Origin: Nostoc punctiforme PCC 73102
GTDB taxonomy: Bacteria > Cyanobacteriota > Cyanobacteriia > Cyanobacteriales > Nostocaceae
Assembly (NCBI RefSeq): GCF_000020025.1
Contig: NC_010628.1
Coordinates: 5,700,001-5,732,000, forward strand
Length of the DNA stretch: 32,000 nucleotides
Direction of reading: 5' to 3'
This document shows, one piece after another, positions 4,225 through 27,458 of the stretch. Position 1 is the stretch's first letter. Every line of letters starts with the position of its first letter. The notes beneath the pieces were generated by a model. The model saw only the letters and a list, made by a program, of their open reading frames with translations. It was not told the origin of the DNA and did not search any database. Both the position numbers and the translations under genes were made by a program.

Positions 4225-5700
4225 ATGCAATTACAATCGAAAAATCATTTACGGCGGCGGGGTGCGACTCTGACGGCTCAAGGCTCAAGGAAACTCAATC
4301 AGGCAAAAGCTCAGTTAGAAATTGAGCAAAACTTTAAGCGATACACTCTCGAAGACTTTAGTGAGAAGACAGGTTTAACCCCCAATACTCTCAGCAAGGT
4401 CTTTAATGGCTCAGTAGGGGTCGATAAGCGAACCTTGGAGTGCTGCTTTAATGCCTTTAATATGACCTTATTAAAAGACGATTATTTCTATCTGGAGCCT
4501 CATCAAGACAATCTTGCCGAGATTGGCTTAATGTCGTCGGCTGAAGCCTGCGATCGCATCGAACCAGTATGCGATTCTCGCAGCAATGTAGGGCAAATCC
4601 ACAAAATGGAACGAACGCCAGACGATCTATACCCTCGTCTCTTAACTACACCAGGAGGGCAGATGCCCCTGGATTCAGTCTTCTACATTGACCGTCCTAT
4701 TCTCGAATCCCTCTGTTACGAAGCCATCCAGCAACCCGGTGCGTCGATCAACATCCGCGCCCCCAAGCAAATGGGCAAAACTTCCCTAATGACTCGCATC
4801 CTGGCTTACGCTAACTCCCAGGGTCATCACGCCGTTTCTGTGAACTTGCAACTTGCTAACGACGAGATTTTACAGAACCTAGAACGCTTCTTAAAATGGT
4901 TCTGTGCCAGAGTCAGTAAGCAGTTAGACTTGCCAAATGAAATTGCTAGTTTTTGGCATAATTCCTTGGGCAGTAAATCAAATACCACTGATTATTTCCA
5001 GGATGTAATCTTAACCAACCTCGATCGCGGAGTCTCTTCAAGAGAGCATTGCCCCCTAGTCATTGCGATCAATGAACTCAACCAGCTTTTTGCTTACCCC
5101 GACGTTGCTCGTGAATTTCTCCTACTTTTACGAACATGGTCTGAGCAAGGCAAAGAAGCCGATGCAGACATTAATCCTTGGTACAAGCTGCGATTGGTGA
5201 CGGTTCATTCTACTGAAATTCTCATGCCTTCCTCCATCGATCCCTCTCTCTTGAATACTGGGCTGGTTATTGAGTTACCTGAGTTTACCCCTGCTCAGGT
5301 GCAGGATCTAGCATATAGGTGCGAACAGGATATAACCTCGTCACAAACCCAGCGCCTGATCGCTCTGTTGGGGGGGCATCCCTATCGGTTGCAGTTAGCA
5401 TTTTATTACCTACAGCAGCAGACAATAACCCTAGAAGAACTCTTAGAAAATTCTGCGATCGCTACCGTCATCTATGCAGACCACCTAGAACAACAATGGT
5501 GGAACCTGCAACGATATCCCGATTTATTGCCATTGTTTACAGAAATCGTCAGACAATCAAGTCCTGTAGATTGCGATGCTATGCAAGGTTCCCAGTTGCA
5601 CAAAATGGGGTTAGTGCATCTGTACGATCTGAGGGCAAGTCTCGTCTGTGAGTTATTTCGTCCGTTTTTCTGCGATCGCCTGCTGCAAATCAACAGTTAG
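4225..5700 (+). CDS. HTH-like N-domain plus AAA-like (AAA_35 / PF14516-type) P-loop NTPase
   Basis: 491-aa ORF. Residues ~35-65 (YTLEDFSEKTGLTPNTLSKVFNG) look like a helix-turn-helix. FYIDRPILESLCYEAIQQPGASINIRAPKQMGKTSL contains the Walker A sequence APKQMGKTS in the context typical of cyanobacterial AAA-like domain proteins. The Walker-B-like sequence LVIAINELN has Asn where Asp is usual. Confidence 0.7.
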   Translation: MQLQSKNHLRRRGATLTAQGSRKLNQAKAQLEIEQNFKRYTLEDFSEKTGLTPNTLSKVFNGSVGVDKRTLECCFNAFNMTLLKDDYFYLEPHQDNLAEIGLMSSAEACDRIEPVCDSRSNVGQIHKMERTPDDLYPRLLTTPGGQMPLDSVFYIDRPILESLCYEAIQQPGASINIRAPKQMGKTSLMTRILAYANSQGHHAVSVNLQLANDEILQNLERFLKWFCARVSKQLDLPNEIASFWHNSLGSKSNTTDYFQDVILTNLDRGVSSREHCPLVIAINELNQLFAYPDVAREFLLLLRTWSEQGKEADADINPWYKLRLVTVHSTEILMPSSIDPSLLNTGLVIELPEFTPAQVQDLAYRCEQDITSSQTQRLIALLGGHPYRLQLAFYYLQQQTITLEELLENSAIATVIYADHLEQQWWNLQRYPDLLPLFTEIVRQSSPVDCDAMQGSQLHKMGLVHLYDLRASLVCELFRPFFCDRLLQINS

Positions 5701-5903
5701 AGGTGCTAAGAACAGGTACACAAATTTTTAGTGGGACGTTGAAGGAAAATTTAACTTAATCTTATCCTTTTGTTGATTTGTTCTTAGTTGTACAAATACT
5801 TTTAATCCAATATAGTCTATTTAATAAATTATAAAATCTTCTATAAAAATTCTATTTAATCGTTTAAAAGCTTTGTTGGTGATAGCTTTGGTGATTTTAA
5901 TCA

Positions 5904-5952
5904 TTGACAATATCTAGAGCAGATTCTTAAGAATTCTATGTGATATTGTCAA
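5904..5952. promoter_or_regulatory. nested palindrome (candidate operator) overlapping a TTGACA hexamer upstream of the CBM20 fusion gene
   Basis: There are perfect 11-nt inverted arms: TTGACAATATC (5904-5914) and GATATTGTCAA (5942-5952). They enclose a perfect 12-nt palindrome ATTCTTAAGAAT (5923-5934). The structure lies 64-112 nt upstream of the ATG at 6016. Confidence 0.4.
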
Positions 5953-8259: not shown

Positions 8260-8278
8260 GAAATTAGAGAAAAGCGAT

Positions 8279-8488
8279 CGCATTTGTTACTTTGGCGTTC
8301 GCATTTGTTGATTTGGAGTTCGCATTTGTTGATTTAGCGATCGCATTTGTTGATTTAGCGATCGCATTTGTTGATTTGGCGATCGCATTTGTTGATTTGG
8401 CGATCGCATTTGTTGATTTGGCGATCGCATTTGTTGATTTAGCGTTCGCATTTGTTGATTTAGCGTTCGCATTTGCTATTTCGGCGAC
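8279..8488. repeat. tandem array of about 10 copies of a 21-bp unit (CGCATTTGTTGATTTGGCGAT), each central junction forming a HIP1 octamer
   Basis: Units start at 8279, 8300, 8321 ... 8468. Intact GCGATCGC occurs at 8337, 8358, 8379, 8400 and 8421, exactly 21 bp apart. Edge units carry GCGTTCGC or GAGTTCGC. The array fills the gap between two convergent genes. Confidence 0.95.
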
Positions 8489-8642
8489 TGGGTTGTTTGA
8501 GTGGCTGTGAAATGATCTGCCGATTACTTACAGCTTGTTTTTGTCGCAAATCATCACAAATTGCTTGTAAATCGTAGTTGAAAGCCTTTGCATGTTCTTC
8601 TCTTATTCTATAAATCTCTTCAAGAATTTCATCTTTCCACAT
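8460..8642 (-). CDS. small protein coupled to the PIN gene (putative antitoxin/partner)
   Basis: The ATG at 8642 lies 2 nt after the PIN gene stop (8645). The 60-aa product is MWKDEILEEIYRIREEHAKAFNYDLQAICDDLRQKQ.... Its last codons run into the 21-bp tandem array. The longer ORF-track version (start 8675) overlaps the PIN gene and seems unlikely. Confidence 0.45.
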   Translation of the reverse strand: MWKDEILEEIYRIREEHAKAFNYDLQAICDDLRQKQAVSNRQIISQPLKQPSRRNSKCER

Positions 8643-8644
8643 AT

Positions 8645-9118
8645 CTACTCTCCCATTAGTTCGTAGGGTGTACAAAGGGTTGGCAACTCGTATCCGGCAT
8701 CAAGACTGATTTGGGCTAGCTTCTTCTGAATTTGAGCATTGGCAATATGCTTACAGTTCCACGTTAACAGATAGTCCAATCCGTAAACTGTAGCCACCGC
8801 AATATGAAGCGCATCATCAGCAGCTTTCGGTGGAAGACTACTTTTTGCAAGAAATTGTGCTGCTAAATTTTGAACAGCTTCACTTACTTCAAGCAAAGGA
8901 AAATCACGTACTATTTCAAGTCGCTTCGTTGCTATCTCTGTATCGCCTCGTGCTACTTCATCCAAAACCACTTGAGAAATGTAGAGCATAAACTGATAGC
9001 GACGTGTGTCCCACCATTCCCGCGTAGCTTCTAAATTAGCCATCAGGATCAAGTTGTTACTCGGTCTAGCAGTCAAGTAGCCAACAATACTGGTTTCAAT
9101 GTAAACAGTTTCGCTCAT
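8645..9118 (-). CDS. PIN-domain (VapC-like) protein
   Basis: 157-aa ORF. Acidic and polar positions are spaced as in PIN domains (YIETSIV near the N-terminus, LDEVARGD, ADDALHIAVA, LLTWNCKHI). A small translationally coupled partner gene follows it. Confidence 0.6.
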   Translation of the reverse strand: MSETVYIETSIVGYLTARPSNNLILMANLEATREWWDTRRYQFMLYISQVVLDEVARGDTEIATKRLEIVRDFPLLEVSEAVQNLAAQFLAKSSLPPKAADDALHIAVATVYGLDYLLTWNCKHIANAQIQKKLAQISLDAGYELPTLCTPYELMGE

Positions 9119-12278: not shown

Positions 12279-14342
12279 TCATAGCTCAGTTTTTTCCATT
12301 TTCCCAGATTTGAGACGAGAAGCTTTCGCTGGTGCTGAATTATTTTGCAGAATTGCAATTTCTCTCTGTGCATCTTGATAACTATCTTTTTCGCCTTGCT
12401 GTTGGAATAGTTTTGCAGCTTTTTTGAAATCTGCGATCGCTCCCTGTTTATTTTTCTGCTTGGTGCGAATCACACCCCGATTATAGTAGGCTAAGGCATT
12501 GTTAGCATTAATTGCGATCGCTTGTGAATAATCTTGATTGGCAGATTTTTTATTTCCCAGTTCAAGATAAGCGTTACCACGATTGTTGTAAGCTGCTATA
12601 TTATTAGGATCTAGTTTCAGAGCTTCGCTGTAATCTTCAATAGCGCCTTTATAATCTCCGAAAGAAAAGCGGTGAATACCTCTGTGAATATAAGCGGCAA
12701 TAAATTTAGGGTCAATCTGTAAAATAGTATTGTAATCTTCAGTAGCTTCGATTTTATTTCCCAGATCGCTGAAAACATCACCTCGATTGAGATATGCTTC
12801 TATATATTTGGGATTAATGTTAATTGCATCTGTGTAATCTTTAAGGGCTGCATATTTTTGTTTATTAATAGATTGAGTTAAAGCCCTCTGATAATAAGCT
12901 TTGGCATCACTAGGATTAATTTTAATTACTGTATCAAAATCTTCGATTGCCCCTTGCTTGAGTCTGAGGCGACGGCGGATAATCCCACGCTGTAAGTAGG
13001 CTTCGGTATATTGAGGCTTGAGGGCGATCGCTTTACTAAAATCTCCAATTGCCCCTTTATTATCTTTCAATTGAACACGGGCTAACCCTCGTCCATAGTA
13101 AGCATAAGCATCATCAGAGTTTAACTTAATCGCTTGAGTATAGTCTGCGATCGCTTCTTTGTATTTGCCTAATTCCGAAAAAGCAAATCCTCGGTCAAAA
13201 TAGGCATTCCCATCTTGAGGATTGAGTAAAATGGCCTGACTAGAGTCTGCTTGTGCTTGCTCATAGTCTCCTAATCGATAATAAGTATCGCCTCGCTTAT
13301 TATAAGCTAAAGCATTTTTTGGATCTAATTCAATAACGTGATTGAAATCTTTAACTGCTCCTTCATAATTTCCTGCATCATATTTATCTAACCCTTCTTG
13401 ATATAATTCTTTTTGGGCATTATTTATAGGTTTTGGCAAATTTAAAAACCACACTCCTACACCAAGTATGATTAAGCCAGCTATCCCAGCCAAAACTATT
13501 AATAATTTTTTATCAGGCTGTTTTTGCGGAACTCCAACATTTGTTAACTTTTTCAGGTCATCTAAAACTTCGGTTGCATACTGGTAGCGCTTACGATAGT
13601 CCAAACGCACCATTTTATTAATAATTCTTACTAACTTTTTATTGATTTCTAGATTTTTGTTATACCAAAGTATTTCACCAGTCAGGCGATTTTTTTGATT
13701 TTGTAAATTAGATATTTCGTTTGCAGACAAACCTAAAAGTGCTGCGATCGCAACCATACCTAAAGCATATATATCACTGTTATATTTAACATTGCTCTTA
13801 ATTTGTTCTATAGGCATATATTCGAGATTTTCAGCATTATTAGTGATAGCTTCATTAAAATTACTAAAATCAACCAGAACTAATTTTTTATCTGACTCTC
13901 GGCGAATAATATTTGTTGGTTTAATATTCCGGTGAATGACACCTAAGCTATGTATAATCACCAAAATTTCTAATACTTCTGATAAAAGACTAATTACTTG
14001 GTTTTCCCTCAGAGGTTCTCTCTGGATAATTTCGTCAGTTAAAGGATTACCAGCAATGAATTCTTTAACTATATAAAATTCTTCATTTTCTTCAAAATAA
14101 GCAATTAGCTTTTGAATTTTATCGTGTTCCTGTCCTAATTTTTCTAAAGTTTCTGCTTTACTGGTAAACAAGCGACTGAGGATTGTTAAAGATTGAGGAT
14201 TACTACTATGAGGACTTAACTGCTTTATTATAAATTGGCTGCCAGGGAGATTAATATCTTCAACTAGATAGGTTTTTGCCTTATCACCATCATTGAGAAC
14301 TTTTAGTATTTGATAATGTCCATCTAGAAAATGACTATTCAT
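12279..14342 (-). CDS. Ser/Thr protein kinase with one TM helix and about 10 C-terminal TPR repeats
   Basis: 687 aa. Kinase subdomains: IIKQL (Lys), HRNIKPTNI catalytic loop, LVDFS (DFG-like), YMPIEQ. TM segment: LLIVLAGIAGLIILGVGVWFL. It ends with repeated AYxNRGxxYxxLGxYxxAIxDYxxAIxLxP units. Confidence 0.9.
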   Translation of the reverse strand: MNSHFLDGHYQILKVLNDGDKAKTYLVEDINLPGSQFIIKQLSPHSSNPQSLTILSRLFTSKAETLEKLGQEHDKIQKLIAYFEENEEFYIVKEFIAGNPLTDEIIQREPLRENQVISLLSEVLEILVIIHSLGVIHRNIKPTNIIRRESDKKLVLVDFSNFNEAITNNAENLEYMPIEQIKSNVKYNSDIYALGMVAIAALLGLSANEISNLQNQKNRLTGEILWYNKNLEINKKLVRIINKMVRLDYRKRYQYATEVLDDLKKLTNVGVPQKQPDKKLLIVLAGIAGLIILGVGVWFLNLPKPINNAQKELYQEGLDKYDAGNYEGAVKDFNHVIELDPKNALAYNKRGDTYYRLGDYEQAQADSSQAILLNPQDGNAYFDRGFAFSELGKYKEAIADYTQAIKLNSDDAYAYYGRGLARVQLKDNKGAIGDFSKAIALKPQYTEAYLQRGIIRRRLRLKQGAIEDFDTVIKINPSDAKAYYQRALTQSINKQKYAALKDYTDAININPKYIEAYLNRGDVFSDLGNKIEATEDYNTILQIDPKFIAAYIHRGIHRFSFGDYKGAIEDYSEALKLDPNNIAAYNNRGNAYLELGNKKSANQDYSQAIAINANNALAYYNRGVIRTKQKNKQGAIADFKKAAKLFQQQGEKDSYQDAQREIAILQNNSAPAKASRLKSGKMEKTEL

Positions 14343-16594: not shown

Positions 16595-17164
16595 TTATTC
16601 AAAAACCACATCTTCGTAAAGTGATGCCATTGTTTCCTCAAAATCCACGCTGTTGAGTCGAAATGATTGATGTTCTGCTGTGTAGGATTGTAAAACCCAC
16701 AACCCTTGCTCATTGCGGCGAAAAGACTCGACTCGCTGACGTTTGGTATTAATTAAAACATATTCTTGCAGACTTTCCAGTGTTTGATAATCGGCAAATT
16801 TATCGCCCCGGTCAAAGGCTTCGGTAGAATTAGATAAAACTTCGACAATTAAACAGGGAAATCTTTTATAACCTGGCGTTTCTTGATCTCGTTGATCGCA
16901 AGTAACCATCACATCGGGATAATAAAAGCGATTCAGAGATTCAATTCGGGCTTTCATGTCAGCGATGTAAACACGACAACCAGAGCCGCGCACATGATTA
17001 CGGAGGAGAGATGCCAGGTTAAGAGCAATGGTAACGTGTGGATCAAGCGCTCCAGCCATTGCATAGATGTAGCCGTCGATATATTCATGCTTGATATTGC
17101 TCTGTTCCTCCATTTGGAGGTATTCTTCAGCAGTGAGGTAGTTTTGTTGGGGCGAGGCTATCAT
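16595..17164 (-). CDS. Uma2-family (DUF820) restriction-endonuclease-like protein
   Basis: 189 aa. LTAEEYLQMEEQSNIKHEYIDGYIYAMAG...PDVMV...LIVEVLS is the typical Uma2 pattern. Confidence 0.8.
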   Translation of the reverse strand: MIASPQQNYLTAEEYLQMEEQSNIKHEYIDGYIYAMAGALDPHVTIALNLASLLRNHVRGSGCRVYIADMKARIESLNRFYYPDVMVTCDQRDQETPGYKRFPCLIVEVLSNSTEAFDRGDKFADYQTLESLQEYVLINTKRQRVESFRRNEQGLWVLQSYTAEHQSFRLNSVDFEETMASLYEDVVFE

Positions 17165-17258: not shown

Positions 17259-17507
17259 ATGATGGCTAGTGCTACCATCAGCACTAAAGGACAAGTAACT
17301 ATTCCTAAAGAAATTAGAGATTATCTTAACCTTGATACAGGTAGTAAGGTTGATTTTGTCATTGATGAAAATGGAATAGTTAAATTAATTCCCTTGAATA
17401 TCTCTATCCAAAGTTTATCAGGGATTTTACACCGTCCGGGAATGAAAAGCGCAACTTTAGAAGAAATGGAAGCTGCAATTAAAGAAGGCTCAAGTGATTG
17501 GACTTGA
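17259..17507 (+). CDS. vapB: AbrB/MazE/SpoVT-type antitoxin (VapB-like)
   Basis: 82 aa. TISTKGQVTIPKEIRDYLNLDTGSKVDFVIDENG is a SpoVT-AbrB swapped-hairpin motif. It overlaps the start of a PIN remnant. Confidence 0.8.
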   Translation: MMASATISTKGQVTIPKEIRDYLNLDTGSKVDFVIDENGIVKLIPLNISIQSLSGILHRPGMKSATLEEMEAAIKEGSSDWT

Positions 17508-17662: not shown

Positions 17663-17857
17663 TTAAAAATTAGGTAATAAACCTGCTTGTTTACATATTT
17701 CATTAGCAGTAATACGATCAATGGTACGATGACGTTTTACAGGAAGAGTTTTTATCTCATTAGTATAAATTGAATGATTTCCTCCTTCCCTTAATAAATA
17801 AAAGCCATTTTGCTCTAAGTATTTAATTAGCTCTTTTCGCTTGACTGACACACTCAA
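17663..17857 (-). CDS. hicA: HicA-family mRNA interferase toxin
   Basis: 64 aa. KRKELIKYLEQNGFYLLREGGNHSIYTN is typical of HicA/YcfA. It overlaps the hicB stop by 4 nt. Confidence 0.85.
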   Translation of the reverse strand: MSVSVKRKELIKYLEQNGFYLLREGGNHSIYTNEIKTLPVKRHRTIDRITANEICKQAGLLPNF

Positions 17858-18072
17858 ACCTCTATAGGAATTTGTTCGAGCAAAGAACCGCCTGTGGGAA
17901 TTTCTTTATTTTGTTGACGATAGGCAAGAACCATTTCTTTGGTTGCATCTTGTAACATAGCTCTACATTCTTCTATGGTTTCTCCTTCTGTGATGACTTC
18001 TTGCCATTCAATAAGTTGTCCCATATATCCGCTATTAGTTTTTGTATATTTTGCAGTGTATGTAATTAACAT
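17854..18072 (-). CDS. hicB: HicB-family antitoxin (short form)
   Basis: I prefer the ATG at 18072 (MLITYTAKYTKTNSGYMGQLIEWQEVITEGETIEECRAMLQDATKEMV...). The 25 extra codons in the ORF track (start 18147) extend into the flanking repeat and look non-coding. Confidence 0.75.
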   Translation of the reverse strand: MLITYTAKYTKTNSGYMGQLIEWQEVITEGETIEECRAMLQDATKEMVLAYRQQNKEIPTGGSLLEQIPIEV

Positions 18073-18146
18073 TGCTATGTTTGTGAAGATAATTATATGA
18101 TTTATCGTAGCTGATTTTTTGTTGTGGGAGACATTGCTCTTCATCA

Positions 18147-18195
18147 TTCACAACTCATAATAGCGATCGCTTGTAGATTTACACTTATTTTCTAG
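18147..18195. repeat. right copy of the direct repeat flanking hicAB
   Basis: See 17596-17662. It contains an intact HIP1 at 18163-18170 and is followed immediately by the pair-B right arm. Confidence 0.75.
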
Positions 18196-18294: not shown

Positions 18295-18550
18295 TGAGAA
18301 AGAAAAGCTGCTTTTGCTTGCGTAAAACACTAAAATAAGAAACTAAAAGCTGCTTTTGTTTGTAGAAAACACTAAAATGCGAGATTAAAAGCTGCTTTTG
18401 AAGAAGTAAAAGCTGCTTTCGTTTGTGGAAAACACCAAAATGCGAGATTAAAAGCTGCTTTTGGAGAAGTGAAAGCTGCTTTCGTTTGTGGAAAACATTA
18501 AAATGCGAGATTAAAAGCTGCTTTTGAGAAAGTAAAAGCTGCTTTTGCAT
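18295..18550. repeat. tandem array with a 63-bp period built from 21-nt modules around the near-palindromic core AAAAGCTGCTTTT
   Basis: The core occurs at 18303, 18345, 18387, 18408, 18450, 18471, 18513 and 18534, giving spacings of 42, 42, 21, 42, 21, 42 and 21. The inter-core segments resemble one another. Confidence 0.9.
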
Positions 18551-18677
18551 AAGTAATCAGGCATTTTTACTTAACTCAATATGAATTTCAGTCTAGGCGA
18601 CACCTTTCATTTGGAACGGTACGCGATCGCGATCGCGCTTTTTAGTTTGATCGCGGTAAGCTTTGCACAAAACTAGC

Positions 18678-21149
18678 TTATTCTTGATTTGGGGGGAGGC
18701 GATCGCGAAGACTTGCCAAATTTCTACGCACACTAACAGTATTAGGATGATCTGCACCTAACCGAGGCTCTAAAATATCTAATGCCTGCATATACAACGG
18801 TTCGGCTTCGCTGTATCTGCCTTGGGAGTAGTAGAGATACGCTAGGTTGTTGAGACTTTGTGCGGCATCTGGATGTTCTTCACCCAGCAGCTTGCACCTG
18901 AGTGCCAAAGCTTGGATGTAAAGGGGTTCGGCTTCGCTGTATCTGCCTTGGGAACGGTAGAGTGCCGCTAGGTTGTTGAGACTAGTTGCGACATCTGGAT
19001 GTTCTTCACCCAGCAGCTTGCGCCAGAGTGCCAAAGCTTGGATGTAAAGGGGTTCGGCTTCGCTGTATCTGCCTTGGGAGCCGTAGAGTGCCGCTAGGTT
19101 GTTGAGACTAAGTGCGACATCTGGATGTTCTTCACCCAGCAGCTTGCGCCAGAGTGCCAAAGCTTGGATGTAAATGGGTTCGGCTTCGCTGTATCTGCCT
19201 TGGGAGTCGTAGAGATACGCTAGGTTGTTGAGACTAGTTGCGACATCTGGATGTTCTTCACCCAGCAGCTTGCGCCTGAGTGCCAAAGCTTGGATGTAAA
19301 TGGGTTCGGCTTCGCTGTATCTGCCTTGGGAGTCGTAGAGATACGCTAGGTTGTTGAGACTAGTTGCGACATCTGGATGTTCTTCACCCAGCAGCTTGCG
19401 CCTGAGTGCCAAAGCTTGGATGTAAATGGGTTCGGCTTCGCTGTATCTGCCTTGGGAGTCGTAGAGATACGCTAGGTTGTTGAGACTAGTTGCGACATCT
19501 GGATGTTCTTCACCCAGCAGCTTGCGCCTGAGTGCCAAAGCTTGGATGTAAATGGGTTCGGCTTCGCTGTATCTGCCTTGGGAGTAGTAGAGTCCCGCTA
19601 GGTTGTTGAGACTAAGTGCGACATCTGGATGTTCTTCACCCAGCAGCTTGCACCTGAGTGCCAAAGCTTGGATGTAAAGGGGTTCGGCTTCGCTGTATCT
19701 GCCTTGGGAACGGTAGAGTGCCGCTAGGTTGTTGAGACTAGTTGCGACATCTGGATGTTCTTCACCCAGCAGCTTGCGCCTGAGTGCCAAAGCTTGGATA
19801 CAAAGAGGTTCAGCTTCGCTGTATCTGCCTTGGGAGTAGTAGAGATACGCTAGGTTGTTGAGACTAGTTGCGACATCTGGATGTTCTTCACCCAAGCGCT
19901 TTTTAGTGACTTCTAAACACTGCTCATACCAAGGTAAAGCTTGGCTATATAAACCTTGACCATTATAAAATCTAGCGTTGCCGATGAAAGGCCCAACTAA
20001 ATCATCATCGCTGACGTATTGAATGAGATGATTCGCTACTTCAGCTATATGAGGAATAGTGGGAGAAACGGCAGTGATTTGCTCAAGGGTAGACGATTCA
20101 GGAATATCTTGGGCAACTGCTACCATTACCCGACAAAAAGAAAGCTTTAATTCCTCCCCCTTATCTAAACTTGTAAGCTTATATTGAAAAAACTCCCGTA
20201 GCAGTGGATGCAGTTGATAAATTCCCTCACCTTTGCGCTGAACTAAATGCAGATTCAAAAAGCATTCGTCTCTAATTTCTTCTAAATCTTCGGTATCTTC
20301 TTCTGGTAAACACTGTTCCACCAACTTCCAAGGTATAGGTGCTGTGGCAAATAAACTCAATAAACAACCCAGTTGCTTATCGCTGTCCTCTAATTCTTGC
20401 CAACTCAACTCAAAAGCTGCTAACACACCTCGCTGTGCTGTCATGTCGGTTTCCGACTTAGATTTAGAGAGTGAACGCTCATCTATTCCCTTGTTCTTCA
20501 ACCGCCGCAACATCTCTGTTAAAGATAAATCTTGTTTCCGCGCCAGATAGCGCCCGACTAATTCCACACCTAAAGGTAAATATCCCAGCCATTTACATAA
20601 CTGATTTGCTAAAGCTAATTCTCGCTCAATTCGCTCTGGTGTTTCTTTGAGTAAAGACTTTAATAACTCCAGCGCCGCTTCTGGTTGCAGCACATCCAAA
20701 GATAACTTTGCAATGCGTCCCAACTTCTGGCGCGTAGTCATCAACACTTTAAACCGAGAAGATGACGACGGTAGATAAGGCTTAACTTGCTCGTAGTTGC
20801 TGACATCATCCAGCACCAGCAGCACCTCACCCTCACGCCAATGCCGCCAACAGTATTGCACTTGCGCGAGTAAATCAAAATCTTCTGGCGGCTTTAAATC
20901 AAGCTGCGTTCTGGCAAACTGCACAACTTGAATGCCCACATCCCCAGTTTTTGCAAGCAACCAGCAAAGCCCACCGTTGTATGTGTTGCGGTGCTGGATG
21001 GCATATTGCAGGGCGAGTTCTGTTTTACCAACTCCACCCATGCCAGAAATAGCTGCGATCGCAACTGGTTTATTATCCTGCATAAGTTGGTGAAGATTTT
21101 GCAATTCTTCTTCACGTCCGACAAATTCCACCACCCCACTCAAGGGCAA
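18678..21149 (-). CDS. NB-ARC STAND NTPase with C-terminal TPR array (NLR-like); the 5' end is undefined, see the in-frame TGA finding
   Basis: Walker A GMGGVGKTELA, Walker B VLLVLDDV, KVLMTTR, GYLPLGVELVG (GLPLA-like), then nine LGEEHPD...42-aa TPR units. The only start offered is a TTG at 21149. The frame stays open upstream as far as a TGA at 21210-21212. Confidence 0.9.
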   Translation of the reverse strand: MPLSGVVEFVGREEELQNLHQLMQDNKPVAIAAISGMGGVGKTELALQYAIQHRNTYNGGLCWLLAKTGDVGIQVVQFARTQLDLKPPEDFDLLAQVQYCWRHWREGEVLLVLDDVSNYEQVKPYLPSSSSRFKVLMTTRQKLGRIAKLSLDVLQPEAALELLKSLLKETPERIERELALANQLCKWLGYLPLGVELVGRYLARKQDLSLTEMLRRLKNKGIDERSLSKSKSETDMTAQRGVLAAFELSWQELEDSDKQLGCLLSLFATAPIPWKLVEQCLPEEDTEDLEEIRDECFLNLHLVQRKGEGIYQLHPLLREFFQYKLTSLDKGEELKLSFCRVMVAVAQDIPESSTLEQITAVSPTIPHIAEVANHLIQYVSDDDLVGPFIGNARFYNGQGLYSQALPWYEQCLEVTKKRLGEEHPDVATSLNNLAYLYYSQGRYSEAEPLCIQALALRRKLLGEEHPDVATSLNNLAALYRSQGRYSEAEPLYIQALALRCKLLGEEHPDVALSLNNLAGLYYSQGRYSEAEPIYIQALALRRKLLGEEHPDVATSLNNLAYLYDSQGRYSEAEPIYIQALALRRKLLGEEHPDVATSLNNLAYLYDSQGRYSEAEPIYIQALALRRKLLGEEHPDVATSLNNLAYLYDSQGRYSEAEPIYIQALALWRKLLGEEHPDVALSLNNLAALYGSQGRYSEAEPLYIQALALWRKLLGEEHPDVATSLNNLAALYRSQGRYSEAEPLYIQALALRCKLLGEEHPDAAQSLNNLAYLYYSQGRYSEAEPLYMQALDILEPRLGADHPNTVSVRRNLASLRDRLPPNQE
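18762..19895 (-). repeat. nine tandem 126-bp (42-codon) near-identical TPR-coding units
   Basis: CATCTGGATGTTCTTCACCC recurs at 18866, 18992, 19118, 19244, 19370, 19496, 19622, 19748 and 19874, exactly 126 bp apart. The central units look identical at nucleotide level by eye. Confidence 0.95.
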
Positions 21150-21209
21150 ATTTGGCGGTATTTCAGTAGAGGGATTTGACTTTGCCCGTTCCCGTTCGAG
21201 CGACTGTAG

Positions 21210-21722
21210 TCAATCAGGAGAATTCTGATGGTAATTGATAGTAATTAGGCTATTGTCTACGCCTTGAAAGGTGGGAGCTTTACTATCAATACTTTGAAAA
21301 CCTTGGCCACCGTAAACATTCTGGACATTTTTACCTTGAACTTTGTCAATATTAATTTCCTGGTGAATTTCTTTAGCAAGGCTTTGAACTTCTTCGCCAA
21401 ATTGGGGATAGCTGTCCATTTCGACCTGTAGGTAAGCTGCAACAAAGTTTAAATCTTCCTTAGAACCTTGTTCAGCCTTTGTTAAGGCTTCTTGTACTTT
21501 CGGTTTACCCTTGAACTGATCCCAAATTTTTTGGCGTAGCAGTTTCAACTTGTCTAAAGTACTTTCGGTTATCTTCTCTACGGTTTTTTCTATAGCCTTA
21601 GTGATTACCAAAGTTGCGATCGCAGCTGCTGTCAGTGATACTGGCTCCATAACTTTGCCAAAATATAAGAGATTTTGTTTAGAGGATGTTTTAAAAGAAT
21701 CTTTTATACTCATAGTTAGCAA
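21210..21722 (-). CDS. helical N-terminal domain ORF in frame with the downstream NB-ARC ORF (candidate effector/adaptor domain)
   Basis: 170 aa. The likely true start is the ATG at 21650 (MEPVSLTAAAIATLVITKAIEKTVEKI). The tail is Q/N/G-rich (VQGKNVQNVYGGQGFQSIDSKAPTFQGVDNSLITINY). It ends at a TGA that is in frame with ORF 18678-21149. Confidence 0.6.
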   Translation of the reverse strand: MLTMSIKDSFKTSSKQNLLYFGKVMEPVSLTAAAIATLVITKAIEKTVEKITESTLDKLKLLRQKIWDQFKGKPKVQEALTKAEQGSKEDLNFVAAYLQVEMDSYPQFGEEVQSLAKEIHQEINIDKVQGKNVQNVYGGQGFQSIDSKAPTFQGVDNSLITINYHQNSPD

Positions 21723-21888: not shown

Positions 21889-21931
21889 ATAAAAAAATTA
21901 AGGGACGACTTCTATCGGTGAAATCGCCCCT
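21889..21931 (-). terminator. candidate rho-independent terminator of the Tudor-like gene
   Basis: On the minus strand, AGGGGCGA...TCGTCCCT forms a stem with 7 of 8 bases paired plus an inner TTC/GAA pairing. TAATTTTTTT follows. It begins 28 nt after the stop at 21959. Confidence 0.45.
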
Positions 21932-21958
21932 CTCAACTTATAAATAGTGAAATATACT

Positions 21959-22351
21959 CTATCTGCTTACTCTCGAAGGTTCAACCCACTCATCCCAAGA
22001 GCTATCATAGCCATCATAAGTAATTTTATAAAGATCGTTACTAACTTCTAAAACCTGCCCTTTATACCATTTACGTTTCCACAAAATTCTCACTGCATCT
22101 CCAACTTCAAATGATGCTCGGAAGCGTTCAGCACCAACCCATTCATTCCAAGAACTATCATAACCTTCATAAGTAATATAGCAATTATCATTATTATTAA
22201 CCTTAAGTACCGTTGCTGGATACCATTTTTCCTTCCAAAGAACCTCAGCCTTTTGTCCCACAGAACAGGGTGAAGCAGCTAAAGCACCGGGAATCAATGT
22301 CCCTACCCAAGTTGCCATGAAGATGGCACCAAACAATACTTTATTTTTCAT
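21959..22351 (-). CDS. secreted protein with two tandem Tudor/Agenet/SH3-like repeats
   Basis: 130 aa. Signal peptide: MKNKVLFGAIFMATWVGTLIPGALA. Two ~50-aa repeats follow: GQKAEVLWKEKWYPATVLKV..NCYITYEGYDSSWNEWVGAERF and GDAVRILWKRKWYKGQVLEV..LYKITYDGYDSSWDEWVEPSRV. Confidence 0.6.
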   Translation of the reverse strand: MKNKVLFGAIFMATWVGTLIPGALAASPCSVGQKAEVLWKEKWYPATVLKVNNNDNCYITYEGYDSSWNEWVGAERFRASFEVGDAVRILWKRKWYKGQVLEVSNDLYKITYDGYDSSWDEWVEPSRVSR

Positions 22352-24673: not shown

Positions 24674-24809
24674 CGATCGCCAGGATAAATAATACTATTT
24701 TGTAAATCCGTTGATATTTAAATATCACTGTGGAAAACTCTACTGCCATTCTTAAGCAGATTCACTATAGTAAGTTCGGACGGAGGTGATTTTTCTAACT
24801 ATAAAAAAT

Positions 24810-25718
24810 ATGAAAATTTCTAAATTGTTAATTAGTTTGCTAGGAGCGATCGCACTTCTCACTACTGCTGGTTATTATTATGTATTTATCTTAGGTGCGC
24901 CGCAACTAGACCCACCCCAAAGAGTGGCAAAGACTGGGCTAAAGTTTCAATTAGCAACCTTCAACTCGCAAGCGATGGGTGCAGTCCGCAAGTATGGCGT
25001 GATTTTGCCGCCTGATTATGATAAAAATCAGCAAAAGCGCTACCCGGTGATATTCTTATTGCACGGTGGTCATGATGATGCTCGTGCTTATGCTGATAAG
25101 TATGCAGTCTTAGATGTACTACATGAACTTTATCAAAATGGAAAATTACCACCATCAATTGTGATTACACCTGATGGTAATGATAATCGTGGTTCCAGTC
25201 CTTTTTACGATCCTGATTACTTTGATGGCCCGAATGGCAAAATAGGGACTTTAATTGGTTCTGAATTAGTGCAAGTTATCAAGTCTCGCTACCGCACTTT
25301 AGAAGAACCTCAGTTTTGGGCGCTGGGAGGTCTATCTTCTGGGGGATGGGGAGCATTTAATATAGGGTTACGCTATCTTAACAACTTCCACATTCTGTTT
25401 AGCCATAGCGGTTACTTTACCGATAATAGCGGTTCACAAAATAGTCCTCAACAAATTGTGCAACAGCTACCGCTTCAAGATAGGAAGCGATTGCATATTT
25501 ACTTGGATGCAGGTTTAAATGATACTAATTTATTGGCTTCTACCAAAGCCTTCAACGAAACCTTAAATAAATTAGGCATTGCTCACGTATTTTATGCGTT
25601 TCCAGGAGGTCACGGTTTGTCTGGTGCTGACATAGGCTGGAACTACTTCCACAAACACATTAAAGATTCGCTCTCGTATGTAGGGGAACAATTTAAAAAG
25701 TTAGGAGTTAAAAGTTAG
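24810..25718 (+). CDS. membrane-anchored/exported esterase-family protein, paralog 2
   Basis: MKISKLLISLLGAIALLTTAGYYYVFILG is an N-terminal anchor. Other motifs: YPVIFLLHGGHD, GGLSSGGWGA, FPGGHG. It is collinear with paralog 1 along its whole length. A GTG at 24786 is an alternative start. Confidence 0.8.
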   Translation: MKISKLLISLLGAIALLTTAGYYYVFILGAPQLDPPQRVAKTGLKFQLATFNSQAMGAVRKYGVILPPDYDKNQQKRYPVIFLLHGGHDDARAYADKYAVLDVLHELYQNGKLPPSIVITPDGNDNRGSSPFYDPDYFDGPNGKIGTLIGSELVQVIKSRYRTLEEPQFWALGGLSSGGWGAFNIGLRYLNNFHILFSHSGYFTDNSGSQNSPQQIVQQLPLQDRKRLHIYLDAGLNDTNLLASTKAFNETLNKLGIAHVFYAFPGGHGLSGADIGWNYFHKHIKDSLSYVGEQFKKLGVKS

Positions 25719-25752
25719 GAGTTAAGAGTTAAGAGTTTTAACACCAAAACTA

Positions 25753-25797
25753 ATGACAAATGACAAATGACAAATGACTAATAACAAATGACTAATA
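25753..25797. repeat. STRR-type heptamer array (ATGACAA and variants, about 6 units) spanning the start codon of the next gene
   Basis: ATGACAA ATGACAA ATGACAA ATGACTA ATAACAA ATGACTA ATAATTT. The ATG at 25788 belongs to one of the units. A second heptamer run (GAGTTAA-like) lies at about 25700-25740. Confidence 0.7.
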
Positions 25798-27458
25798 ATT
25801 TAAAAACTCAGATTGGACTTTGGAGTGCAGCTTTCCTGACTGGTTTAGTGGGAGTAGTGAATTTGTTGTCAGCAGTGACCCCTAACTTGTATGGGCGGAA
25901 TCACTGGTTAAAGGAATTTTTGCCATTTGAAATTCGTGCCACGGGTCATATATTTGCAGCGCTGACTGGGTTTGTTTTACTTGCACTTGCTACTAATTTA
26001 TTACGCAGAAAAAGAATTGCCTGGTTATTAACCATTGCTTTACTAGTAATTTCCATTTTCAGCCATTTGCTCAAGGGATTGGACTATGAAGAAAGTCTCC
26101 TCTCTGGAGTTTTACTGGTGCAATTAATCTTGATGCGCCATTTTTTCACGGCACAATCAGATCGTCCTTCAATTGCACGCGGAGTTAGAGTGCTGATAGG
26201 TGCTTTACTATTTACCCTGGCATACGGAACTATCGGATTTTACTTATTAGACGGCAAATTTTCTGAAAATTTTAATTGGGGTGAAGCTGTACTTCAGACT
26301 TTAGCGATGTTCTTCACTGAGGATAATTGGGGACTGCAACCAAAGAGCCGATTTGGAGAATTTTTTGCTAATTCGATCTATATTATTGCCGCAGTTACTA
26401 TTACCTATGCAATAGTAATGTTATTGCAACCTGTATTTTGGCGTAATCTAGCAACGCCAAAAGAGCGCCAAAGAGCTAAAGAAATTGTCGAGCAATATGG
26501 ACATTCTTCTTTAGCAGCGATCGCACTCTTAAATGACAAGAGTTATTATTTTAGCCCTACTGGTAATAGTGTAATAGCTTATGTTCCCAAAGGCAGGGGT
26601 GCGATCGCATTAGGAGATCCCATCGGCCCCATTGAAGACCGCCAAGAGACAATTGTTGCTTTCTGGCAGTTTTGCCAGCGCAATGACTGGTATCCGGGCT
26701 TTTACCAAACTTTGCCTGATGATGTTGAGCTTTACAAATCATTGGGATTTAAGGTACTCAAGATTGGAGAAGAAGCGATCGTTGACCTAAAAAGTTTTAC
26801 ATTACAAGGTAAAGCCGGTAAAAACTTTAGACCATCAATAAATCGTTTAACTAAACTGGGATACCAAATCGAGTTTTACCAACCACCCATTGCTGATACT
26901 TTGTTGCACCTCCTCAAACCTGTGAGTGATGAATGGCTAAAGATGGTACAAGGTTCAGAAAAACAATTTTCTTTGGGTTGGTTTGACGAAGCTTATCTGC
27001 GAGAGTGCGAGATTGCTGTGGTGCATACTCCCGAAGGTAACATCAGCGCCTTTGCCAACGTTCTCCGGGAATATCAACTTAACGAAGCAACTATTGACAT
27101 GATGCGACATCGCTCATCTCTTGAGAATGGGACGATGGACTTTCTATTTATTTCTCTGCTTCAGCATTTTAAAGAGTGTGGTTACGACAGCTTTAATTTC
27201 GGTCTTTCTGCCCTTGCGGGAGTTGGAGACAACCCAGAATCACGCCGCTTAGAGAGAGTCTTGCACTATCTTTACGAGCATTTGAATCGCTTCTACAACT
27301 TCAAGGGGCTACACGCCTACAAAGACAAGTTCCGCCCCAGTTGGGAACCGCGTTATTTGGTTTACCCCAGTTTAGCTGCCTTACCAGATGTAGTTGTAGC
27401 ATTGATTCGCGCAGATTCAGGCGATCGCCTTTTTGATTATTTCAAACCCGGAGCCTAA
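25788..27458 (+). CDS. mprF: MprF C-terminal half: about 6 TM segments plus an aminoacyl-phosphatidylglycerol synthase domain (DUF2156/LPG_synthase_C)
   Basis: 556 aa. The cytoplasmic domain shows GRGAIALGDPIGP, KVLKIGEEAIVDL, GKAGKNFRPSINR, EKQFSLGWFDEAYL, IDMMRH..., GTMDFLF and FNFGLSALAGVG, as in lysyl/alanyl-PG synthases. Confidence 0.85.
   Translation: MTNNLKTQIGLWSAAFLTGLVGVVNLLSAVTPNLYGRNHWLKEFLPFEIRATGHIFAALTGFVLLALATNLLRRKRIAWLLTIALLVISIFSHLLKGLDYEESLLSGVLLVQLILMRHFFTAQSDRPSIARGVRVLIGALLFTLAYGTIGFYLLDGKFSENFNWGEAVLQTLAMFFTEDNWGLQPKSRFGEFFANSIYIIAAVTITYAIVMLLQPVFWRNLATPKERQRAKEIVEQYGHSSLAAIALLNDKSYYFSPTGNSVIAYVPKGRGAIALGDPIGPIEDRQETIVAFWQFCQRNDWYPGFYQTLPDDVELYKSLGFKVLKIGEEAIVDLKSFTLQGKAGKNFRPSINRLTKLGYQIEFYQPPIADTLLHLLKPVSDEWLKMVQGSEKQFSLGWFDEAYLRECEIAVVHTPEGNISAFANVLREYQLNEATIDMMRHRSSLENGTMDFLFISLLQHFKECGYDSFNFGLSALAGVGDNPESRRLERVLHYLYEHLNRFYNFKGLHAYKDKFRPSWEPRYLVYPSLAALPDVVVALIRADSGDRLFDYFKPGA

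Follow-up and report, generated by a model that had tools for sequence, protein, structure and literature searches.

What is the role of a bacterial gene that carries nine almost identical copies of one repeat differing at only a few codons, and how is its product connected to the small protein encoded directly upstream? These questions are raised by a gene of the cyanobacterium Nostoc punctiforme PCC 73102 that lies within a 32,000-nucleotide stretch of its chromosome (NC_010628.1, positions 5,700,001 to 5,732,000), which we call the window and to which all coordinates refer. The encoded protein (ACC82962.1/WP_012410922.1) resembles Nod-like receptors (NLRs) and combines an NB-ARC nucleotide-binding domain with an array of tetratricopeptide repeats (TPRs). 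The annotated NLR open reading frame (ORF) begins right at the NTPase; a Bell-like domain, the protein Npun_R4604, is encoded upstream in the same frame with one UGA in between. The best explanation for the locus as a whole, to which we assign a probability of roughly 0.75, is that the array forms the diversifying groove of an NLR sensor and that the Bell-like ORF encodes a candidate effector, possibly connected to it by recoding. The array had been pointed out before in a description of the window made from its letters and ORF translations, here called the original prediction.

Anatomy of the repeat array

Tandem Repeats Finder detected one strong array at 18799-19894 with a period of 126, 8.7 copies, 94% matches and a score of 1898. 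It lies on the minus strand within the ORF 18678-21149, for which we obtained the following features:

18678..21149, minus: NB-ARC/TPR (NLR-like STAND) ORF, 823 aa from the first TTG (ORF list, Pfam)
20439..21095, minus: NB-ARC nucleotide-binding domain, aa 19-237 (PF00931, E 2.6e-17)
20022..20438, minus: helical region between NB-ARC and repeats, aa 238-376 (model of low confidence to about aa 330)
19896..20021, minus: diverged N-terminal capping TPR unit, aa 377-418 (unit HMM match at aa 377; Pfam count of 10)
18888..19895, minus: units 1-8 of the 126-bp/42-aa array, hypervariable codons at positions 10, 17, 20 and 39
18762..18887, minus: unit 9 (unit-by-unit DNA comparison)
18681..18761, minus: C-terminal capping half-repeat (LGADHPNTVSVRRNLASLRDRLPPNQE), kept in orthologues

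The reverse complement of 18762-19895 splits into exactly 9 x 126 nt in the frame of the gene. Each of the nine units begins with LGEEHPD and their spacing is exactly 42 aa, as the original prediction had it. Units 4 and 5, described there as identical in DNA, indeed show 0 differences. Units 2 and 8, for which an identical peptide had been noted, also show 0 DNA differences, and hence share the DNA as well. Unit 6 differs from units 4 and 5 by 1 nt, and pairwise identities among units 1-8 range from 87 to 100%. An exact repeat of 308 bp at offset 126 starts at 19152, and the perfectly periodic stretch covers about 434 bp. Unit 9 and a terminal cap had been called more diverged: the last third of unit 9 carries 26-32 differences while its first two thirds resemble the other units, and a 27-residue C-cap follows directly. 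Ahead of the array we additionally found the diverged N-cap unit, which was absent from the original prediction and accounts for a total of 10 TPR_10 stretches in Pfam.

Within units 1-8 residues vary at the seven predicted positions and nowhere else: 10 (T/L), 17 (Y/A/G), 20 (Y/R/D/G), 31 (L/I), 32 (C/Y), 39 (R/W) and 40 (R/C). Synonymous differences are confined to unit 1 (nt 1, 84 and 90). In units 2-8 all 11 of the 11 variable nucleotides are nonsynonymous and fall within 6 codons; for 11 random sites to hit 6 codons or fewer the probability is P = 6.5e-5. Several of these changes are swaps of whole codons that involve 2-3 nt (TAT/GCA/GGA; TAC/CGT/GAC/GGC; ACT/CTT).

Selection on the variable codons

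With the NB-ARC half as query more than 1,700 relatives were found, mostly in Nostocales, among them 80 loci in species-representative genomes. Arrays were parsed with a hidden Markov model (HMM) built from the units of the window, and 57 related arrays entered the diversity and selection statistics. The mean within-array amino-acid diversity was highest at positions 10, 17 and 20 (0.73-0.78), followed by 39 (0.67) and 32 (0.60), with most others below 0.3. We then compared the proportions of nonsynonymous (pN) and synonymous (pS) differences, using pairwise Nei-Gojobori counts on recombining units of phylogenetically related arrays: at codons 10/17/20 the mean within-array pN was 0.542 versus a pS of 0.329, and at the remaining 39 codons the mean pN was 0.125. 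Per-site ratios of pN to the global pS were 1.91 (10), 1.80 (17), 1.47 (20) and 1.34 (39). For the array of the window itself a pN of 0.520 at the three hypervariable codons, a pS of 0.062 and a pN of 0.019 for the rest were found, i.e. a ratio of 8.4 at the hypervariable codons. Amino-acid change in the family is concentrated, with pN above pS, at positions 10, 17 and 20 in helix A and at position 39 at the end of helix B.

The diversifying selection proposed originally is borne out by the per-position test, in which pN at 10/17/20 exceeded pS in 52 of the 57 arrays, and the interpretation of the array as a fast-evolving recognition domain is supported. Such selection would retain new groove residues, such that new binding specificities would arise quickly.

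This pattern is hard to reconcile with a young tandem amplification that evolves neutrally, with differences due to random drift and no recognition role. Units 4, 5 and 6, with 0-1 nt differences, do look as if they had been triplicated very recently, units 2 and 8 are the same, and the synonymous divergence in the window array is tiny. Drift would, however, have to account for the purely nonsynonymous changes packed into 6 codons, for the codon swaps, and for the same positions 10, 17, 20 and 39 being the most variable across 57 separate arrays. Moreover, arrays are found throughout the Nostocales, indicating that the repeat is old but homogenised. We consider neutral amplification very improbable.

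Few variable codons in otherwise identical DNA superficially resemble the variable regions of a diversity-generating retroelement, in which variation would be written by targeted mutagenesis rather than by recombination and selection. The variable bases of the array are, however, not specific for adenine (A/C, C/T, T/G, A/C/G and others), the variation lies between tandem units instead of between template and target, and neither a reverse transcriptase nor a template repeat is present among the ORFs of the window. The chance that this or a similar mutagenic system produced the pattern is practically negligible.

Position of the variable residues in the proposed binding groove

An AlphaFold2 model based on 48 homologues shows the whole array as an alpha-solenoid with confidence values (pLDDT) above 90, while the NB-ARC part was modelled poorly. 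Helix A covers unit positions 6-21 (16 residues) and helix B positions 25-43 (19 residues). The closest solved sequences are the TPR domains of kinesin light chains (KLC; E 3e-61), and the Podospora '42PR' structures 4Y6C and 4Y6W match the array with E values of 1e-27 to 4e-27. The term 42PR denotes a 42-residue TPR with lengthened helices A and B (PMC5642895). Having the 42-residue period as well as the longer helices, the units are TPRs of the kinesin-light-chain type.

To locate the variable positions we used the sequence register and published contacts, not model coordinates. In the Pfam TPR_1 alignment the canonical TPR position 1 corresponds to unit position 9, so that unit positions 10/17/20 equal TPR positions 2/9/12. 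TPR positions 2, 5, 9, 12, 13, 33 and 34 belong to the concave face and are the most variable ones, and ligand contacts in HOP involve TPR positions 2, 5, 6, 9, 12 and 13 (Magliery and Regan, PMC1261162). A HMMER alignment of the array with KLC1 was ungapped across 207 residues. It places the residues of KLC1 that contact JIP1/TorsinA (PMC6214655) at the following unit positions: R266 at 20, N259 at 13, N301/N302 at 13/14, V305 at 17, K309 at 21, Y313 at 25, R327 at 39, K340 at 10, N343/N344 at 13/14, L347 at 17, L348 at 18, N351 at 21 and N386 at 14. Each of the four positions whose pN/pS exceeds 1.3 thus matches a cargo-peptide contact: 10 matches K340, 17 matches V305/L347, 20 matches R266 and 39 matches R327. 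The pair Asn13-Asn14 is invariant in every unit and matches the Asn pairs of KLC1 that form hydrogen bonds with the peptide backbone.

These coincidences fit a peptide-binding groove in which constant residues clamp the backbone and variable ones read the side chains. Positions 10, 17, 20 and 39 would line the concave groove and read the side chains of a ligand, while the Asn13-Asn14 pair would hold its peptide backbone. The register to KLC1 is shared beyond these contacts: KLC1/KLC2 TPR domains (PDB 7AI4, 6FUZ, 3ZFW) have the same 42-residue period, and the Asn pairs of their LNNLA motif bind the peptide backbone. In contrast to the Nostoc protein, KLC has six diverged units without internal conservation, lacks an NTPase and is a eukaryotic cargo adaptor.

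A number of points weigh against reading the array as a selected groove. Pairwise pN/pS values among recombining units are no formal site test, and the arrays share ancestry. Of the seven positions originally proposed, 10, 17, 20, 39 and 32 are variable family-wide, whereas 31 and 40 vary in the window but are not hypervariable across the family. Positions 32, 7, 41 and 37 are fairly variable yet lie outside the KLC1 contact list; the expected location of the variable sites on the concave face fits 10, 17, 20 and 39 by register, and 32 is no listed contact. Finally, the assignment to the concave face is based on register and published contacts and not on measured geometry.

Three helix-A positions and one helix-B position under selection in 57 arrays suggest a receptor of the arms-race type in a cyanobacterium that serves as a model of symbiosis, and they name concrete residues to mutate or to graft in a search for the ligand.

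Concerted evolution and unit number

We defined syntenic loci by their flanking genes (aspartokinase, Uma2-like, HicB-like, Tudor-like, membrane protein and esterase). Complete arrays of the family contain 2-17 units and those of syntenic orthologues 6-12, compared to 10 with caps in the window. The mean DNA identity of internal units was 0.944 within the window array versus at most 0.902 to any orthologous array, and identity within arrays exceeded that between arrays for most of the 12 arrays compared. Compared with one related locus (L002), the NB-ARC DNA of the window is 89% identical and the units 76%. At the closest orthologous locus, in Nostoc sp. LEGE 12447 (L004), the flanks show 94-99% DNA identity, NB-ARC 90.9% and the array 88.8%; none of the residue triplets at positions 10/17/20 is common to both arrays. 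The locus is a divergence island between flanks that are 94-99% identical in DNA.

Units are kept nearly identical within an array while orthologous arrays differ in number and sequence, in agreement with the concerted evolution that the original prediction had invoked. Unequal crossing-over and gene conversion among units would duplicate, delete and reshuffle them, and would give rise to the mosaic unit 7 as well as to the identity of unit 4 with unit 5 and of unit 2 with unit 8. The copy number had been supposed to be polymorphic between strains; we found it to vary between species at syntenic loci, strains within a species being outside the comparison.

Repeats that are termed highly internally conserved (HIC) in NLRs have unit identities above about 85% and vary in number at the same locus. 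Here the identity is 0.944 with two identical pairs, and the repeat number varies between species. The array is a bacterial member, now quantified, of the HIC repeats of NLRs known from fungi.

Reliability of the assembled array

Near-identical units may mislead an assembler, and the original prediction had warned of this hazard. It is real: at 22 of the 80 related genome loci a contig ends inside the array, and in one further case (L006) a gap of Ns inside the array interrupts the ORF. Among Logan short-read assemblies of this strain carrying Npun_R4604 all 75 of 75 have it on contigs below 5 kb, and the contigs inspected break off within the NLR gene at about aa 422, where the first near-identical unit begins. 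Such arrays break essentially every short-read assembly, which implies that the NLR repertoires of cyanobacterial metagenome-assembled genomes are systematically truncated.

Could the unit number and order in the window be an artefact as well, caused by collapse or expansion, such that nine units with 4=5 and 2=8 would be untrue of the living genome? The exact 308-bp repeat is longer than short reads, and the full-length protein was found on a single contig, the reference chromosome. The count of nine units is plausible but comes from this one assembly, which weakens our case to that extent. The reference is, however, a finished chromosome of 8,234,322 bp, which we take to be Sanger-based, and the periodic stretch of about 434 bp fits within the span of a Sanger read. 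In addition, the ORF is uninterrupted and keeps its frame, while 10 units with caps fall in the range of complete relatives. An assembly artefact is therefore improbable.

The NB-ARC/TPR protein

The NLR context that had been assumed for the array is borne out by the Pfam matches, with TPR_10 (E 1e-154) following NB-ARC (E 2.6e-17). The translation contains the Walker A motif GMGGVGKT and the Walker B motif LLVLDDV, both invariant across 48 homologues. An NTPase with Walker motifs and C-terminal repeats that form a superstructure is the architecture of NLR-like STAND proteins, and within this NB-ARC/TPR protein the array forms the ligand-sensing domain at the C-terminus. The annotated starts disagree: a GTG at 21134 yields 818 aa, an ATG located 17 codons downstream of it 801 aa (the RefSeq alternative) and a TTG at 21149 823 aa (MetaClust).

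PADLOC returned only generic TPR matches for the protein and no Avs or bNACHT model. The TPR protein of FxSxx-COOH systems (NCBIfam NF040586) scored 348, above the cut-off of 300; we rejected this assignment since the match is carried by the repeated TPR units alone (profile positions 482-731 of 830). There are also no radical-SAM or FxsA-like neighbours within the window. A literature search found no mention of the locus tags.

The Bell-like gene upstream

The region between the NLR gene and its upstream neighbour contains the following features:

21213..21650, minus: Bell-like protein Npun_R4604, 146 aa from the conserved MEPVS start (homologues, AlphaFold2 model)
21210..21212, minus: in-frame UGA stop, then C, between the Bell-like and NB-ARC ORFs (frame comparison across loci)
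21150..21209, minus: 20-codon in-frame linker without canonical start, its 3' part (..STEIPPN) running into the conserved LPLSGVVEFVGRE
21177..21212, minus: conserved RNA structure (covariation; weak single-sequence thermodynamics)
21900..21932, minus: terminator-like hairpin after the Tudor-like gene, probably bounding the Bell-NLR transcription unit on its 5' side

The N-terminus of Npun_R4604, MEPVSLTAAAIATLV, is conserved in 50 homologues. In the AlphaFold2 model residues 1-106 form a helical bundle. They are followed by a disordered, G/N/Q-rich C-terminal motif, NVQNVYGGQGFQSIDSKAPTFQGVDNSLITINY (aa 102-146); over the last 45 residues, which contain a [GT]FQ[SG][IV]D pseudo-repeat, pLDDT is below 50. 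Neither Pfam nor NCBIfam nor PADLOC has a model that matches the protein, and a fold search was uninformative. Published Bell domains comprise about 100 residues with an 'MEPIS' helix 1 and a C-terminal amyloid motif (bioRxiv 10.1101/2020.01.06.895854; 10.1101/2024.11.07.622273). Npun_R4604 likewise has a helical domain of about 100 aa, a hydrophobic first helix and an acidic residue at position 2-3 (MEP..), judged by these features as there is no curated model to score against. It looks like a Bell domain and resembles a cell-death effector.

On the NLR side no matching motif was found after the stop, where the sequence reads LQSLERERAKSNPSTEIPPNLPLSGVVEFVGRE, and the second motif copy that defines Bell/BASS pairs is absent here. 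Four NLR paralogues with an ATG start (P0263, P0275, P0246 and P0287) do carry an N-terminal motif, QINQGNAKGFQALVTGGIANIGIHL, that is similar to the motif at the C-terminus of the Bell-like protein and represents the canonical NLR-side arrangement of amyloid motifs.

At the orthologous locus several types of Bell domain and C-terminal motif occur, joined to closely related NB-ARC modules: ..NVQNVYGGQGFQS.., ..NWQGINIKGGTNTISGNTFNF, ..NYGGNVGNV..NQTFNF and ..IKNVFQGNTFTGTNIF. Across the loci at least four Bell/motif types have the junction in common. When 21213-21650 of the window was compared to 5572-5937 of the LEGE 12447 locus, the Bell ORF aligned over the first 68 nt only, which together with flanks of 94-99% identity indicates cassette swapping at the junction.

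Beyond the Bell-like gene, at 21959-22351 on the minus strand, lies the gene for a protein of 130 aa, whose hydrophobic N-terminus resembles a signal peptide and which contains two Tudor-knot/Agenet-like repeats. The gene is syntenic and adjoins the Bell-NLR unit upstream.

A conserved in-frame stop at the Bell-NLR junction

At 51 of the 80 related loci the NLR gene shares its frame with an upstream ORF longer than 100 codons, from which one stop separates it. In these 51 Nostocales loci the stop is always TGA, and the next base is C in 50 of them, mostly as CTA or CTG. The TGA of the window is no sequencing error, since the Bell-like protein was reproduced exactly in 9 of 9 displayed Logan contigs of the strain (23 carrying contigs examined). 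Distant lineages have TGA-CTA (Kastovskya and Iningainema), TGA-CTC (Dapis) or TAG-CTG (Myxosarcina), in Iningainema with another NTPase downstream of the stop. Counted from the stop, the FVGR motif follows after 25, 25, 28, 32 and 41 codons at five distant loci. The frame is always kept, and at the five loci neither of the other two frames is free of stops. Linker-length variants of 18, 19 or 21 codons, the first two found in Nostoc, are all in frame as well. The junction in this way combines a conserved stop with a downstream frame that is kept across lineages and lengths, as expected for stop-codon readthrough.

A start codon for the NLR gene is not conserved: the first ATG, GTG or TTG is found at -8, -6, -3, +7 or +14 codons relative to FVGR, and at 4 loci no canonical start precedes FVGR. 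A Shine-Dalgarno (SD)-like sequence ahead of the NLR start was absent at the junction loci. In Kastovskya and Iningainema the called starts lie 45 and 70 codons past the stop, well 3' of the onset of conserved coding sequence. For codons 15-25 after the stop we obtained a pN/pS of 0.24, and of 0.36 in the 20 loci without a start before them; the codon for Leu21 varies between TTG, TTA, CTT and CTG. In a simple coding test the linker failed, with a pN/pS of 0.90 for all 20 codons, and the constraint in its 3' half emerged only after splitting. In codons 1-14 pS was 0.18, which is low compared to 0.47 and indicates constraint at the nucleotide level.

These nucleotide-constrained codons coincide with the RNA structure. 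An inner hairpin of 5 bp (21201-21197 with 21188-21184) and an 8-nt purine-rich loop begins 8 nt after the UGA, and a predicted outer helix includes the stop, pairing UGACU (21212-21208) with AGUCA (21181-21177). In the hairpin 99% of cells are paired, and two pairs change in a compensatory manner (C-G / U-A / G-C, with U.G intermediates). None of 500 shuffles equalled the hairpin score, and sliding the partners reduced the pairing to at most 38%. RNAalifold recovered the covarying hairpin together with the outer helix. A covariance model matched the junction only, once per locus, and reached lineages outside its training (Kastovskya 5e-16, Iningainema 1e-10, Myxosarcina 0.013). The stop is found in a putatively stimulatory context with an RNA structure on its 3' side, the thermodynamic support for the latter being weak. 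No known RNA family in Rfam matched the window.

A selenoprotein, in which a selenocysteine insertion (SECIS) element would decode the UGA, was considered and excluded, as Myxosarcina sp. GI1 has TAG and keeps the hairpin; Rfam provided no match either.

Readthrough or re-initiation

Two accounts of the junction compete. Programmed readthrough of the stop would produce a Bell-NLR fusion; going by the sequence comparisons we give it slightly less than even odds. Its main rival is a two-gene operon, in which translation terminates normally at the UGA and the NLR is made by coupling or re-initiation at a nearby GTG or TTG or at a non-canonical codon, while the conserved hairpin and nucleotides have a role in coupling, in mRNA processing or in a recombination that exchanges Bell cassettes. 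For the operon speaks that annotators call two genes, that a TTG or GTG is present 3-8 codons ahead of FVGR in most loci, that the purine-rich loop of the hairpin is SD-like, that Bell types are swapped at the junction between syntenic loci, and that described Bell/NLR pairs are two separate proteins. A re-initiating ribosome would, however, have to do without a start of conserved position or kind and without an upstream SD, and at some loci without any canonical start before FVGR. Purifying selection also acts on codons upstream of the first possible start, and the starts called in Kastovskya and Iningainema come too late for the conserved coding sequence. Coupling furthermore does not call for the frame that is kept through linkers of 18, 19 or 21 codons and over 25-41 codons to FVGR. 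Finally, the NLR ORF lacks a motif of its own, unlike canonical pairs, while its ATG-start paralogues carry one. We therefore consider the operon rather unlikely.

Some of the evidence also tells against readthrough. Linker codons 1-14 have a pN/pS of about 1.1, i.e. no constraint at the protein level, which also speaks for the operon. The hairpin has only 5 bp and is not the minimum-free-energy structure of the single sequence (z = -0.78). The invariance of the TGA is no independent evidence, since the whole junction is conserved. A natural fusion was found once in our search, in the metagenomic protein P0231 (L096, 4001-5287), where a Bell-like domain is fused to NB-ARC with CAC at the place of the stop codon. 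This protein is degenerate, having lost the P-loop and carrying a hydrophobic C-terminus instead of TPRs, and lends weak support to a fusion. The literature searched contained no mention of readthrough in Bell/NLR genes.

Mechanism suggested by the locus

That the upstream Bell-like protein acts as effector of the NLR sensor is moderately supported by the arrangement described above. A ligand bound in the groove would release the NB-ARC switch, leading to oligomerisation, by which an N-terminal death effector would become active. With readthrough, normal termination at the UGA would yield abundant free Bell protein with its amyloid-like C-terminal motif, and occasional readthrough would provide few sensor molecules in the form of a Bell-motif-NLR fusion. 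Ligand-bound, oligomerised fusions would then nucleate assembly of the motif and act as a template for the free effector. As a tentative generalisation, the relatives could constitute a widespread cyanobacterial NLR-like family in which readthrough (at UGA-C, or UAG-C in Pleurocapsales) joins a Bell-like pore-forming effector to an NB-ARC/TPR sensor.

If true, receptor, adaptor motif and executioner, including their stoichiometry, would come from one recoded gene. Readthrough would moreover explain how NLRs without a motif talk to Bell-type death effectors, and the junction would be a rare case of chromosomal programmed readthrough in bacteria.

Comparison with known systems

HIC repeats are best known from fungi. 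The 42PR crystal structures 4Y6C and 4Y6W are reportedly those described by Marold et al. in 2015, and the HIC repeats of the WD40 type in HET-E, HET-D and HET-R are said to go back to Paoletti in 2007 and Chevanne in 2010. Fungal NLRs with HIC 42-residue TPRs have 2 to more than 14 repeats, and three of their sites, located on the concave side in a model based on KLC2, are under positive selection (PMC4986451). The Nostoc protein shares with them the order of NB-ARC and 42-residue KLC-type units, an internal identity of about 90% and the polymorphism in repeat number, with 2-17 units in the cyanobacterial family compared to 2 to more than 14 in Podospora. It differs in its cyanobacterial host, in a polymorphism seen between species at a syntenic locus and not between isolates, and in the helix-B site (39) that is selected in the Nostoc family too. 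Furthermore, where the fungal proteins have a fused sesB or PFD domain as N-terminal module, the Nostoc gene has a Bell-like ORF set apart by an in-frame stop. The Podospora proteins HET-E, HET-D and HET-R also combine concerted reshuffling with diversifying selection at few surface positions (PMC4986451), but they are NACHT proteins with a beta-propeller that function in allorecognition, whereas the Nostoc protein has an alpha-solenoid and NB-ARC. Bacterial NLRs carry such WD and TPR repeats as well, for which a similar evolution was merely suggested in a 2020 preprint (Dyrka et al. 2020, bioRxiv 10.1101/2020.01.06.895854). The array is a clean bacterial equivalent of the NLR sensors of fungi, whose repeats diversify rapidly.

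Regarding the upstream gene, the locus resembles Bell/BASS pairs (10.1101/2020.01.06.895854) and Bab/Agp of E. coli (10.1101/2024.11.07.622273): a protein of about 145 aa with an 'MEP..' helix, a helical bundle and a G/N/Q motif. As in Bell/BASS pairs, the small gene is located immediately 5' of an NB-ARC/TPR gene in a filamentous cyanobacterium. Unlike in these pairs, the NLR is without a second, N-terminal motif and the two ORFs share one frame across UGA-C and the hairpin. A Bell-like ORF joined to its sensor by a conserved stop and a covarying hairpin is, as it appears, a previously undescribed Bell/NLR variant. Antiviral STAND proteins (Avs, bNACHT) follow the same logic of effector, NTPase and repeat sensor, and N-terminal helices of the 'MEPIS' type are reported in some of them; they have NACHT rather than NB-ARC, in line with the negative PADLOC result for these models.

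Signals for readthrough are known from phage Q-beta, whose A1 protein is produced at a UGA, and include the 'type II' context UGA-CUA as well as the combination of stop, 8-nt spacer and structure in RNA viruses. The junction resembles them by its leaky-type UGA-C (mostly CUA or CUG), the 8-nt spacer, the stem-loop and an in-frame ORF without start. It differs in being part of a chromosomal bacterial gene and in the very short stem.

Other features of the window

Directly 3' of the NLR gene, at 18303-18556, there are tandem repeats of 21/42/63 nt with a unit of about CTCAAAAGCAGCTTTTACTTT; a 93-aa ORF at this place looks like a translation artefact of the repeat. Syntenic loci have at the same position either the CTCAAAAGCAGCTTTTACTTT family or an unrelated family of 21-22 nt (AACTCGGCCTTTCATGTTCTG). 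Genes of toxin-antitoxin type surround the NLR gene at 17259-17507 (plus), 17854-18147 (minus), 16595-17164 (minus) and 8645-9118 (minus), with matches to MazE/AbrB-like PF04014 and UPF0150/HicB-like PF21748 and two further small ORFs. The MazE-like and HicB-like genes and the gene at 16595-17164 recur at syntenic loci.

Another TPR protein is encoded at 12279-14342 on the minus strand, a 687-aa ORF with a kinase-like N-terminal sequence and about ten diverged 34-residue TPRs. These ordinary repeats contrast with the near-identical 42-residue units of the NLR. A further NTPase-type ORF in the 32 kb, of 491 aa, is found at 4225-5700 on the plus strand and matches the AAA_35 'AAA-like domain' with E 1e-125.

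Two more repeat regions were observed. At 8274-8487 ten tandem 21-bp units, each with the cyanobacterial HIP1 palindrome GCGATCGC, lie in the gap between a 747-aa ORF and the ORFs at 8460-9118. At 25696-25796 two runs of heptamer repeats (AGTTAAG and AATGACA, with periods of 7/14 nt) extend from the end of the esterase ORF (24786-25718) into the beginning of a lysyl-phosphatidylglycerol-synthase-like ORF (25788-27458), and are reminiscent of the short tandemly repeated repetitive (STRR) sequences of Nostocales.

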